A stretch of DNA of 64,000 bases, from the NCBI RefSeq assembly GCF_055900595.2, contig NZ_CM148325.1, one strand, 5' to 3'. Shown piece by piece: positions 46,958-47,306 of the stretch; position 1 is the first letter of the stretch; each line of letters opens with the position of its first letter. Made by a program: the position numbers and the translations under genes. A model generated the notes under the pieces. It was not told the origin of the DNA. It was given only the letters and a program-made list of their open reading frames with translations, and made no database searches.

Positions 46958-46991
46958 AAAAAAACCGCAATCTGTGAAACACATTGCGGTT
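46958..46991 (-). terminator. Terminator of the tRNA-fMet operon (bidirectional hairpin)
   Basis: Stem aaccgcaat/attgcggtt with 11-nt loop; on the minus strand it is followed by a U7 tract (the A-run 46958-46964), 19 nt downstream of the tRNA 3' end. Confidence 0.65.
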
Positions 46992-47009
46992 TATCAGCAT
47001 CATAAGTGT

Positions 47010-47086
47010 TGGTTGCGGGGGCCGGATTTGAACCGACGACCTTCGGGTTATGAGCCCGACGAGCTACCAGGCTGCTCCACCCCGCG
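47010..47086 (-). tRNA. metV: Initiator tRNA-fMet (anticodon CAT), copy 1
   Basis: Reverse complement reads CGCGGGGTGGAGCAGCCTGGTAGCTCGTCGGGCTCATAACCCGAAGGTCGTCGGTTCAAATCCGGCCCCCGCAACCA: unpaired C1/A72, three G-C pairs in the anticodon stem, CAU anticodon, encoded CCA. The copy name is inferred from gene order. Confidence 0.93.
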
Positions 47087-47119
47087 TCACCGTACTGCTT
47101 TACTTCATCAAATTTTGAT

Positions 47120-47196
47120 TGGTTGCGGGGGCCGGATTTGAACCGACGACCTTCGGGTTATGAGCCCGACGAGCTACCAGACTGCTCCACCCCGCG
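47120..47196 (-). tRNA. metW: Initiator tRNA-fMet, copy 2 (D-loop C16-to-U variant)
   Basis: Identical to copies 1 and 3 except one base (plus-strand ccagActgctcc versus ccagGctgctcc), giving GGAGCAGUCUGG in the D-loop. Confidence 0.9.
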
Positions 47197-47229
47197 TCAC
47201 CGTACTGCTTTACTTCATCAAATTTTAAT

Positions 47230-47306
47230 TGGTTGCGGGGGCCGGATTTGAACCGACGACCTTCGGGTTATGAGCCCGACGAGCTACCAGGCTGCTCCAC
47301 CCCGCG
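47230..47306 (-). tRNA. metZ: Initiator tRNA-fMet, copy 3
   Basis: Same 77-nt sequence as copy 1; tandem with about 33-bp spacers. Confidence 0.93.

Follow-up and report, generated by a model that had tools for sequence, protein, structure and literature searches.

The islet that lies between amiC and the tRNA operon metZWV in the window (the whole stretch of 64,000 nucleotides analysed here, contig NZ_CM148325.1 of assembly GCF_055900595.2) is probably a self-contained sugar-uptake and catabolic operon, c3405-c3410, that is integrase-free, self-terminated, moved by recombination in its flanks and independent of the T6SS module found at the same tRNA in other strains. It is recognisably the already described PTS module c3405-c3410 of PAI-CFT073-metV, and the finding is, in this respect, an ordinary and largely known one. 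A role of c3405-10 in bladder colonisation was reportedly described by Lloyd et al. in J Bacteriol in 2009. The features on which the analysis rests are collected in Table 1.

Table 1. Features of the islet, of the adjoining tRNA operon and of the surrounding haplotype block (window coordinates; functions of hairpins and of the RAT-like element are predicted).
Feature	Position	Strand	Basis or content
Divergent haplotype block	~37800-51100		recD end, argA, amiC, islet, metZWV, mltA, tcdA, csdE, most of csdA
amiC	40192-41445	+	RefSeq annotation of near-identical strain E200086; junction comparison
Islet	41446-47009	+	5564 bp; composition profile; comparison with empty-site XJ6.1 and ~60 Enterobacteriaceae species
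Hairpin GTCGGCTT...AAGCCGAC	41543-41565	+	terminator-like site in scan; 3' of amiC
RAT-like element CTTGTAACTG-TTAAAT-CAGGCAAGG	41619-41645	+	likeness to K-12 bgl RAT
Leader intrinsic terminator (predicted)	41636-41692	+	helix 41636-41683, T9 at 41684-41692; directly upstream of antiterminator gene
LicT/BglG-family PRD antiterminator, 274 aa	41703-42527	+	NCBIfam LicT 1.5e-67, 228 bits (equivalog cutoff 300)
PTS EIICB, glucose/maltose (MalX-like) family, 526 aa	42559-44139	+	TIGR02004 PTS-IIBC-malX 6e-161, 536 bits (cutoff 632)
PatB/MalY-family PLP-dependent C-S lyase, 391 aa	44139-45314	+	TIGR04350 1e-109, 367 bits, above cutoff 340
SIS-domain sugar-phosphate isomerase-like protein, 198 aa	45317-45913	+	KdsD 4e-58, kpsF 1.7e-56
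D-isomer-specific 2-hydroxyacid dehydrogenase, PGDH-like, 315 aa	45984-46931	+	TIGR01327 6e-62, below cutoff
CCGCA-type intrinsic terminator (predicted), islet-borne	46958-46991	-	folding; 3' of metV
metV, tRNA-fMet	47010-47086	-	operon's last gene, 3' CCA end toward islet; ARAGORN, Rfam
metW, tRNA-fMet	47120-47196	-	middle copy; ARAGORN, Rfam
metZ, tRNA-fMet	47230-47306	-	operon's first gene; ARAGORN, Rfam

The anatomy of the islet and its allele boundaries were analysed directly. At the empty site (XJ6.1 and ~60 species), amiC is followed by 70-120 bp containing ACAAAAAAACACCC...GGGTGTT and then by metV, while islet alleles carry AAAAAAACCGCAA...TTGCGG in place of this motif pair. The islet, with a G+C content of 33-45% against about 50-57% in the flanks, substitutes for the entire ancestral amiC-metV spacer of ~74 bp, both ancestral terminators included, and no trace of a K-12-type spacer is found in the islet allele. 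All islet alleles part from the empty-site allele 1-3 nt past the amiC stop codon, and on the tRNA side they break no more than about 20 nt from the CCA end of metV. The five ORFs span 41703-46931, leaving a non-coding remainder of about 440 bp. The hairpin located 3' of amiC (the segment 41500-41600 folds at -29.7 kcal/mol, z = -4.2) is probably a substitute amiC terminator, because the ancestral one is missing.

On the other side of the islet, three complete tRNA-Met(CAT) genes occupy 47010-47306 on the minus strand according to both ARAGORN and Rfam, and the tRNA genes are thus intact, as had been noted initially; metW differs from metV and metZ by a D-loop C16U substitution (window position 47181). 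At E <= 1, Rfam returned these three tRNAs, one chance snoRNA match and nothing else. The initial annotation was right that the islet faces the 3' end of a tRNA-fMet gene but took this gene for the first copy: metZWV is read from right to left, which puts metV, the last copy, next to the islet. Folding of the minus strand at 46965-46989 produces a CCGCAAU...AUUGCGG hairpin of 10 + 3 pairs (-18.6 kcal/mol, z = -3.8), situated 20 nt past the CCA end and followed by U7 at 46958-46964, from which we infer an intrinsic terminator ending metZWV; the plus-strand reading of 46958-46991 is weak for the islet operon (a stem followed by UUUAU). This terminator is intact, as first described, but it is not the ancestral terminator of the operon. 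The latter is ACAAAAAAACACCCnnnnGGGTGTT, kept in empty-site E. coli, E. albertii, Citrobacter, Salmonella and Enterobacter, and because empty-site E. coli and other genera share this different terminator, the one in the window must be part of the islet allele. The earlier argument that a terminator separates the tRNA from the islet consequently fails, since that terminator itself belongs to the islet allele. The loop and mismatch limits of a simple terminator scan make it blind to the two key hairpins, which are shown by folding. The islet would come with its own replacement terminators: the hairpin 3' of amiC for that gene, the CCGCA-type one for metZWV.

Each of the five islet ORFs matches an NCBIfam family of metabolic or regulatory function; for three of the encoded proteins, the score is under the equivalog cutoff. 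The LicT, GlcT and BglG models match the antiterminator over its full length, with E-values from 1.5e-67 to 5.9e-30 and scores below the equivalog cutoffs, and orthologues, that of A. hermannii among them, carry the Pfam CAT_RBD and PRD domains. The nearest non-enterobacterial relatives of the EIICB are clostridial (61-68% identity), and clostridial operons are the closest, sharing a PRD-EIICB-PatB-SIS core; none of the five ORFs is an EIIA gene. The KdsD and kpsF models match the SIS portion of the SIS-domain protein alone, making it KpsF/GutQ-like in the SIS part only. The dehydrogenase gene is a pseudogene in A. hermannii and is missing from the Enterobacter and C. difficile versions of the operon.

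Regulation by antitermination is predicted for the islet leader. The RAT-like element, which we liken to the K-12 bglG-bglF RAT GGATTGTTACCG-CACTAAG-CGGGCAAAACC, overlaps by its 3' half the 5' arm of the predicted leader terminator and is unchanged in the A. hermannii and aspV-locus copies. The segment 41596-41702 folds at -30.3 kcal/mol (z = -4.4; none of 200 shuffles is as stable), and the leader stem varies by lineage with pairing preserved (GGCAAGGCA/TGCCTTGCC vs GGCAAGACAAC/GTTGTCTTGCC). No Rfam model matches the islet leader as a RAT, and the 31-bp gap before the EIICB gene holds no second RAT. By analogy with the mechanism reviewed in PMC12591593, a LicT-type antiterminator would bind the RAT overlapping the leader terminator, and islet transcription would in this way depend on whether the MalX-like EIICB is phosphorylated.

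Signs of site-specific mobility were searched for in the islet and at its borders. NCBIfam assigns no integrase or transposase among the five islet ORFs, which confirms what had been read from the sequence initially, as do the searches for a tRNA 3'-end repeat at the amiC-side junction: the 25-nt tRNA 3' end has no copy with up to 3 mismatches outside the three tRNA genes in the 64-kb window, and the tRNA, aligned locally to either strand of 41426-41720, scores 7 at best, a value equalled by 71% of shuffles. The islet is thus not flanked on both sides by att-type repeats as a cis-mobilisable element would be, the amiC side having none. Searches of plasmid and phage collections revealed no islet carrier and only short paralogue matches (KdsD-like, PatB-like). 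Neither an integrase nor a distal repeat was found in any of five islet contexts (Escherichia, E. whittamii, A. hermannii, the aspV locus and the Enterobacter nfo-fruA locus), and the yafV-side junction of the aspV-locus islet contains no tRNA-Asp repeat at <=2/14 or <=4/18 mismatches. Two candidates were discarded. In the PatB gene (44647), 12 nt match the anticodon arm of the tRNA in inverted orientation, which is attributed to chance (~0.04 expected occurrences). At the A. hermannii amiC-proximal junction, a decayed attR composed of the ancestral terminator and a degenerate tRNA 3' half seemed discernible by eye, but its tRNA part is unsupported: what local alignment retrieves is limited to a 17-nt stretch, CAGAAAnnAAAAAACAC, from the ancestral terminator, matched or beaten in 5/500 shuffles with the E. 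coli reference and in 39-133/500 with three other references.

The initial annotation had also suggested a comparison with strains bearing larger metV islands. UM146-type strains have the same islet, but in them a T6SS module of ~28 kb, with a 14-nt repeat of the tRNA 3' end at its two limits, separates the islet terminator from metV. The module retains the ancestral terminator and the 14-nt tRNA fragment on its distal side, has a homologous CCGCA-type terminator next to an intact metV, and also occurs, with an identical repeat, in strains without the islet. The core sequence in question at metV is GGCCCCCGCAACCA, and islands of Trabulsiella and Lelliottia have the 14-nt core as well. The larger metV island of B2-type strains is a composite of the islet and an independent T6SS module inserted at the metV 3' end. 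The window has no T6SS cluster between the PTS module and metV and therefore does not contain the whole ~32-kb PAI-CFT073-metV. The suggestion that its islet is a remnant of a larger island does not hold in the obvious sense: the larger island contains the islet and a separate T6SS module, and the islet is not a leftover of the T6SS unit because it lies outside this repeat-bounded unit.

As for its distribution, likewise analysed directly, the islet is present in 1688 of 5426 complete E. coli genomes, 94 of these carriers having the islet haplotype of the window at >=99% identity. The islet-only arrangement, in which the terminator leads straight to metV, is found in 595 genomes and the T6SS junction in 956. 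Full-length matches occur in UTI89, ABU 83972 and E2348/69 (91-94% nucleotide identity including UM146, which stands at 93.6%). The islet occupies the same locus in A. hermannii, and the E. whittamii islet is about 92% identical to that of the window, as diverged as the flanking core genes. In contigs L096/L097, the five-gene islet adjoins tRNA-Asp (aspV) in the same orientation; the Enterobacter copy, at the nfo-fruA locus, has no adjoining tRNA. That the islet abuts a tRNA 3' end at two loci, metV and aspV, in the same orientation is not predicted by pure recombination.

The surroundings of the islet indicate how it reached this strain. A block of about 13 kb (edges approximate, set by mismatch density per 100 bp) is 88-96% identical to XJ6.1, UM146, QA-1986 83 and DFL.5 in sliding comparisons, against 97-99% outside it; its divergence from typical E. 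coli is 5-8%, and 16 strains share it. In the flanks of the islet, the other strains are 96-99% identical among themselves but only 94-95% identical, each of them, to the window; at >=99% identity, the right-flank haplotype is shared by only 8/5425 genomes. AHB4 combines the window-type islet with an ordinary E. coli left flank, the switch being at about 41.0-41.5 kb, and ECCNB12-2 has a mosaic islet. The divergent block, the rare right-flank haplotype and the AHB4 flank switch agree, for this strain, with the earlier proposal of acquisition by homologous recombination, and they support the view that a ~13-kb tract extending from argA to csdA would have been imported from a lineage diverged by ~5-6% from typical E. 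coli. None of the donor candidates compared, E. whittamii (~92%), Escherichia sp. MOD1-EC7003 (~93-95%) and E. albertii (~88-90%), is closer than ordinary E. coli; the comparison was confined to these three. Alternatively, an old haplotype maintained inside E. coli, rather than a recent import, may account for the 13-kb block. In present-day Escherichia, the islet would be gained, lost and reshuffled by homologous recombination in flanking core genes. Flanking recombination accounts for the current spread of the islet and not for its first insertion.

Several accounts of that first insertion, and of the order of events, have to be weighed. The islet could be what is left, on the tRNA side, of an old element: after site-specific integration at the metV 3' end, to which the element brought a terminator of its own, a later deletion reaching the amiC stop codon would have removed the integrase, the displaced tRNA fragment and the ancestral spacer. 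We regard this as a serious possibility, although not as the favoured one; it concerns the origin only and is compatible with later recombinational spread. An allele break so near the CCA end would fit, as would the abutment of the same five genes on tRNA-Asp, in the same orientation, in another lineage, and the reappearance of the 14-nt core in the Trabulsiella and Lelliottia islands. The terminators point the same way: the T6SS module, which kept both repeat and ancestral terminator distally, has a homologous CCGCA-type terminator by metV; this family adjoins metV or aspV in every insertion-bearing allele examined; in 2.1 Mb of enterobacterial DNA, it occurs only <=80 nt 3' of a tRNA-fMet or tRNA-Asp gene; and at metV it is found only with an insertion (PTS islet, T6SS, fimbrial operon or T6SS debris) or with the non-standard 187-bp spacer of contig L032. 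The terminator family thus hints at what may be an old tRNA-targeted element. However, none of the five contexts yields an integrase or distal repeat, the Enterobacter copy is not beside a tRNA, and the apparent A. hermannii remnant, the 17-nt piece, reaches p about 0.01 against one reference and is not significant against three. Moreover, the K-12 aspV terminator is CCGCA-type too, and native tRNA operons may simply possess this motif as one allele of their terminator, with no element behind it. A more general and decidedly tentative idea, which we consider rather improbable, is that the CCGCA-type terminator (AAAAAACCGCA-N9-20-TGCGG) is the signature end of integrase-less cargo cassettes that replace the terminator of a tRNA operon, the window islet having lost its distal att. 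Such cassettes may include the PTS operon, the T6SS-2 module, a chaperone-usher fimbrial operon and others in many Enterobacteriaceae, may target exactly the tRNA-fMet 3' end and possibly tRNA-Asp, and may be either mobilised in trans or the serially decayed products of one integrase lineage.

The direction of events is a further matter. The islet-only state could be secondary: in a chromosome of the PAI-metV type, with islet+T6SS, recombination between the repeats that flank the T6SS module would have excised this module precisely. In UM146, the repeat is effectively ~41 nt long (terminator arm, spacer and 14 nt of tRNA; 27/27 and 14/14 identical), with 12 more identical nt left of the loop, and would therefore be enough for RecA-independent or short-homology deletion; AHB4 joins the window-type islet haplotype to the T6SS module, and the combined arrangement is the commoner one (956 against 595 genomes). 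However, the islet-only arrangement is found on >=4 divergent islet haplotypes as well as in E. whittamii and A. hermannii, and is for this reason at least as old. The terminator loop of the window is of the term-A type, which is uninformative on direction, and no deletion scar is marked in the window. Secondary loss is unlikely to explain the islet-only state. It is very improbable that the islet is ancestral to Escherichia and the K-12-type short spacer a deletion derivative. The divergence between the E. whittamii and window islets equals that of the flanking core genes and must therefore predate recent history within Escherichia, and A. hermannii has the islet at the same locus, but the K-12-type spacer is no subset of the islet allele, and the spacer with both terminators is kept in E. 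albertii, Citrobacter, Salmonella, Enterobacter and Pseudescherichia, which already contradicts such an ancestry; the low G+C content of the islet and its clostridial nearest non-enterobacterial relatives also argue against it. A self-terminated operon moved by flanking recombination is the reading that we retain.

These findings do not overturn current understanding. They rather suggest that 'PAI-metV' should be treated, in annotation and island prediction, as two independent modules, the PTS islet not being part of the repeat-bounded integrative island. They also suggest that a metabolic islet of small size can replace the termination signal of an essential tRNA operon with its own and afterwards spread by flanking homology alone. 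The rare, ~5-6% diverged 13-kb haplotype would constitute a clean local case in which recombination carried accessory genes from one lineage to another. If the idea of a terminator family is true, old tRNA-targeted insertions that no longer have an integrase or repeats could be recognised by a sequence marker.

Like classical tRNA-integrated islands, the islet adjoins the 3' end of a hot-spot tRNA that is left intact, has an atypical G+C content and is variably present; metV is, with asnT, pheV and leuX, among the tRNA sites of tyrosine-integrase islands (reviewed in PMC7545054). Unlike them, it has no integrase and no flanking direct repeat, is only 5.6 kb long and moves, in the present day, by flanking homology. 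With the T6SS downstream of metV (ETSS2 of E. coli W and PAI-metV of CFT073; PMC3032704, PMC2907695), it shares the tRNA hot spot and a homologous CCGCA-type terminator and spacer by metV, but that cluster is ~28 kb long and bounded by the 14-nt repeat, whereas the islet is without such a repeat. Its organisation recalls the BglG/LicT/SacY operons (E. coli bgl; B. subtilis licS and sacB; PMC12591593) by a CAT-PRD antiterminator encoded beside a PTS EII gene and a predicted RAT-like leader hairpin overlapping an intrinsic terminator; it departs from them by a MalX-like EIICB and a cargo of C-S lyase, SIS and dehydrogenase genes rather than beta-glucoside or sucrose functions, and by having no second RAT and no EIIA. 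The succession of a glucose/maltose-family EIICB and a PatB/MalY C-S lyase is that of E. coli K-12 malX-malY, but here the EIICB is below the MalX cutoffs, an antiterminator stands instead of MalI, and SIS and dehydrogenase genes are added. The closest known system is c3405-c3410, labelled 'PTS maltose/glucose-specific' and given with a strain list in PMC2831201, the nomenclature being that of Lloyd et al. as cited there. The two have in common the amiC-metV locus, the antiterminator, the maltose/glucose-type EIICB and the aminotransferase-like, SIS and dehydrogenase genes, a likeness established through the UM146, UTI89, ABU 83972 and E2348/69 copies rather than CFT073 itself and in agreement with the strain distribution of PMC2831201. 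Unlike PAI-CFT073-metV, the module of the window stands alone at an intact metV, without T6SS, and on a rare divergent haplotype.

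The five-gene sugar-uptake (PTS) islet at 41446-47009 ends against three complete tRNA-Met(CAT) genes, on which ARAGORN and Rfam agree. Because amiC and mltA flank the islet and tRNA genes and the E. coli E200086 record differs from the window at only 2 positions in 6.5 kb, these are the initiator-tRNA genes metZ-metW-metV. They are transcribed right to left, so it is metV, the operon's final gene, that adjoins the islet, and not the first copy as the initial annotation had it. The genes and their predicted terminator are intact, as noted there: on the minus strand a hairpin CCGCAAU...AUUGCGG at 46965-46989 (-18.6 kcal/mol, z = -3.8 by folding) is followed by seven U (46958-46964), while on the plus strand it is followed by just UUUAU. 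Judged from its sequence, this hairpin should terminate the tRNA operon strongly and the islet operon weakly at best.

XJ6.1, an empty-site strain, has only 74 bp between amiC and metV, and these include an amiC terminator and the metV terminator ACAAAAAAACACCCGTTAGGGTGTT. An AmiC scan of GTDB species representatives yielded 80 loci, about 60 of them with a short amiC-metV spacer (70-120 bp), and the ACACCC...GGGTGT terminator is kept in E. albertii, Citrobacter, Salmonella, Enterobacter and Pseudescherichia; given this spread and conservation, the short spacer is ancestral. All five islet alleles compared (window, UM146, QA-1986 83, DFL.5 and E. whittamii) depart from it 1-3 nt past the amiC stop and at most ~20 nt from the tRNA CCA, and have AAAAAAACCGCAA-N13-TTGCGG in place of the ancestral terminator; no trace of the ancestral spacer remains. 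As read from these alignments, the islet allele extends to the tRNA end and both predicted ancestral terminators are replaced. Since the present terminator is part of the islet allele, the argument that it separates the tRNA from the islet fails.

Two variations were seen in the tRNA genes themselves. Position 16 of metW, the middle copy, carries a C16U change in the D-loop (window 47181); metZ, metV, nine further loci and the E200086 record, near-identical apart from this, all have C there, and the change may be either a true SNP or a matter of sequencing. Tandem copy number also differs between loci (L099 6440-6516; L011; L009; L026): one in STEC17-190, two in E. albertii and Salmonella arizonae/diarizonae, three in most E. 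coli and four at one locus, with at least two visible in E. whittamii, whose locus stops just beyond the second copy.

Features of the islet and of comparison loci (window coordinates unless a locus is named)
Feature	Position	Strand	Remark
amiC	40192-41445	+	flanks islet; mltA is the other flanking gene
Hairpin 3' of amiC	41543-41565		in islet leader
RAT-like CTTGTAACTG-TTAAAT-CAGGCAAGG	41619-41645		likeness to K-12 bgl RAT
Strong predicted leader terminator	helix 41636-41683 + T9		fold; overlaps RAT-like sequence
LicT/BglG-family antiterminator	41703-42527		below NCBIfam cutoff
MalX-like PTS EIICB	42559-44139		below NCBIfam cutoff
PatB/MalY C-S lyase	44139-45314		only islet protein above its NCBIfam cutoff
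SIS-only KpsF/GutQ-like protein	45317-45913		below NCBIfam cutoff
PGDH-like 2-hydroxyacid dehydrogenase	45984-46931		below NCBIfam cutoff
tRNA-Met(CAT) copies	47010-47086, 47120-47196, 47230-47306	-	ARAGORN, Rfam
Antiterminator and PatB genes, UM146	L001 20804-21615, 23227-24401		frameshifted
SIS gene, QA-1986 83	L007 21419-22015		internal stop
Dehydrogenase, A. hermannii	L091 13437-14385		pseudogene
Chaperone-usher fimbrial operon, 8.5 kb	L012 11595-19681		Citrobacter youngae
TaeI-type T6SS immunity gene, putative IS debris	L030 11385-14481		Superficieibacter
Genes without assigned function, in a 4-kb insert	L061 11513-13599		Intestinirhabdus
Native aspV terminator, K-12	L102 1009-1075		AAAAAACCGCAA...TTGCGG, same design as insertion-bearing metV alleles
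aspV-side counterparts	L096 6901-6930; L097 6430-6459		aspV-locus contigs

The initial annotation saw no integrase, transposase or tRNA 3'-end repeat on the amiC side, and our searches agree. In the 64-kb window the 25-nt tRNA 3' end (<=3 mismatches) does not occur outside the three tRNA genes, and when the tRNA is aligned locally with either strand of 41426-41720 the top score is 7, which is matched by 71% of shuffles. The islet is nearly all coding, and its ~440 bp of non-coding DNA therefore leave no room for an integrase remnant. Neither an integrase nor a tRNA-derived repeat was found at any of the three loci that carry the operon within Enterobacteriaceae: Escherichia and A. hermannii have it at amiC-metV; Enterobacter has a four-gene version, with no adjacent tRNA, flanked by fruA and a gene of the AP-endonuclease family (Pfam AP_endonuc_2, possibly nfo); and the third copy follows gmhA-fadE-yafV on contigs whose last 30 nt are exactly the 3' end of tRNA-Asp, so that here too the dehydrogenase side of the operon points at the 3' end of a tRNA. 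The plasmid and phage collections contain no carrier of the islet. Within the PatB gene, 12 nt (44647-44658) exactly match the tRNA-fMet anticodon arm in inverted orientation (CTCATAACCCGA); with ~0.04 such matches expected by chance, this was judged coincidental.

The suggestion that the islet is a remnant of a larger island is unsupported for the known PAI-metV. UM146 has, in order, amiC, the islet with its terminator, TGGTTGCGGGGGCC, ~28 kb of T6SS genes, a second CCGCA-type terminator and intact metV; TGGTTGCGGGGGCC, between the islet terminator and the T6SS genes, corresponds to the 14 nt at the tRNA 3' end. STEC17-190 carries the same T6SS module, with this 14-nt fragment and an identical end sequence, ACAGTCAAGAGG, but there it directly adjoins the ancestral spacer without the islet, a junction also found in a Lelliottia species. 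Because its ends are the same with or without the islet, the T6SS module is a discrete unit bounded by a tRNA repeat, and the islet lies outside it. This module has no annotated integrase either. The UM146-type islet/T6SS junction occurs in 956 of 5426 complete genomes; in another variant, strain AVS0717, the IS21-family ISEc12 lies between islet and module (L090 4637-6939).

The islet may still have an older element as its origin. It is possible, if somewhat short of probable, that an insertion targeted to the tRNA gave rise to the islet allele and subsequently lost its distal part up to the amiC stop codon. A search of both strands of 2.1 Mb of enterobacterial DNA placed every AAAAACCGCA-N9-20-TGCGG no more than 80 nt 3' of a tRNA-fMet or tRNA-Asp gene, and at metV the motif occurs in insertion-bearing alleles, plus one locus, L032, where there is just a 187-bp spacer of non-standard type. 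The inserts concerned are the PTS islet, the T6SS module and unrelated, integrase-less cargo at the amiC-metV site of Citrobacter youngae, Superficieibacter (whose transposase-like frameshifted ORF pair we read as putative IS630 debris) and Intestinirhabdus. On the far side of the T6SS module the ancestral terminator persists together with a tRNA fragment, and the CCGCA-type terminator of that allele demonstrably arrived with the insert. However, K-12's own terminator at aspV (tRNA-Asp), another hot spot for islands, is likewise CCGCA-type, and a suspected decayed tRNA repeat in A. hermannii was rejected on testing.

For the window strain, the other proposal of the initial annotation, acquisition by homologous recombination, is supported. 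The window is 97-99% identical to four E. coli strains over most of its length, and just 88-96% identical from ~37.8 to 51.1 kb (argA through the islet to csdA), a block whose edges are fairly sharp. Over the core genes on either side of the islet, the four strains are mutually 96-99% identical whereas the window is 94-95% identical to each, which makes the window the outlier. Its right-flank haplotype occurs in 8 of 5425 genomes (>=99%), the 17-kb region in 16 (>=98.8%) and the islet haplotype in 94 (>=99%). AHB4, one of these 94, joins a window-type islet (99.2-100%) to an ordinary E. coli left flank, switching at ~41.0-41.5 kb, and has the T6SS module on the islet's other side; ECCNB12-2 has a mosaic islet, composed partly of window-type segments and partly of others. 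The block and these two patterns are the expected product of homologous recombination in flanking and internal homology. No donor of the block was found among E. whittamii, MOD1-EC7003 and E. albertii, none of which comes nearer to it than ordinary E. coli does. The recD-argA spacer (38393-38629), 238 bp in the window, 2013C-4282 and AHB4 and ~62 bp in XJ6.1, UM146 and others, contains the block's most divergent 100 bp (32 mismatches) and may hold an inserted repeat element. Elsewhere, ~14.5-16.4 kb, with a 556-aa ORF bearing a lipoprotein-like signal peptide (14576-16246, minus strand) between lplT and tas, has no counterpart in XJ6.1 and so is another small presence/absence polymorphism.

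The G+C content of the islet is 33-45%, against 50-57% in its flanks. Outside Escherichia, its EIICB is closest to that of Atlantibacter hermannii (86% identity), followed by metagenomic enterobacteria (84-85%), Enterobacter sp. (75-78%) and clostridia (61-68%), with only 43-47% identity to MalX-type proteins. C. difficile has the same core (PRD, EIICB, PatB, SIS) plus an EIIA; this agrees with the low G+C and suggests that the source lay in the Firmicutes. The islet is decaying in certain carriers (UM146, QA-1986 83 and A. hermannii).

The 257-bp leader carries the post-amiC hairpin, the RAT-like sequence and the overlapping predicted terminator, and 41596-41702 folds at -30.3 kcal/mol (z = -4.4). 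The putative RAT, similar to that of K-12 bgl (GGATTGTTACCG-CACTAAG-CGGGCAAAACC), is identical in distant islet copies, and the terminator stem varies by lineage with pairing preserved. This layout is that of BglG-family systems, in which the RAT/terminator arrangement is standard (PMC12591593), and we infer that the operon is probably regulated by antitermination. Relative to E200086, the window has one additional C at 41681, in the 3' arm of the terminator, which extends the perfect stem GGCAAGGCA/TGCCTTGCC.

As an accessory module the islet is already known, and its arrangement is unremarkable: it is present in 1688 of 5426 complete genomes, and 595 have it directly beside an intact metV, like the window. 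It is unusual only in its rare divergent haplotype and in supplying the predicted terminator of the tRNA operon. We detected it in UTI89, ABU 83972, UM146 and E2348/69, and it corresponds to the c3405-c3410 module of PAI-CFT073-metV, described as 'PTS system, maltose/glucose specific' and reported from all UPEC, E2348/69 and SMS-3-5 (PMC2831201).
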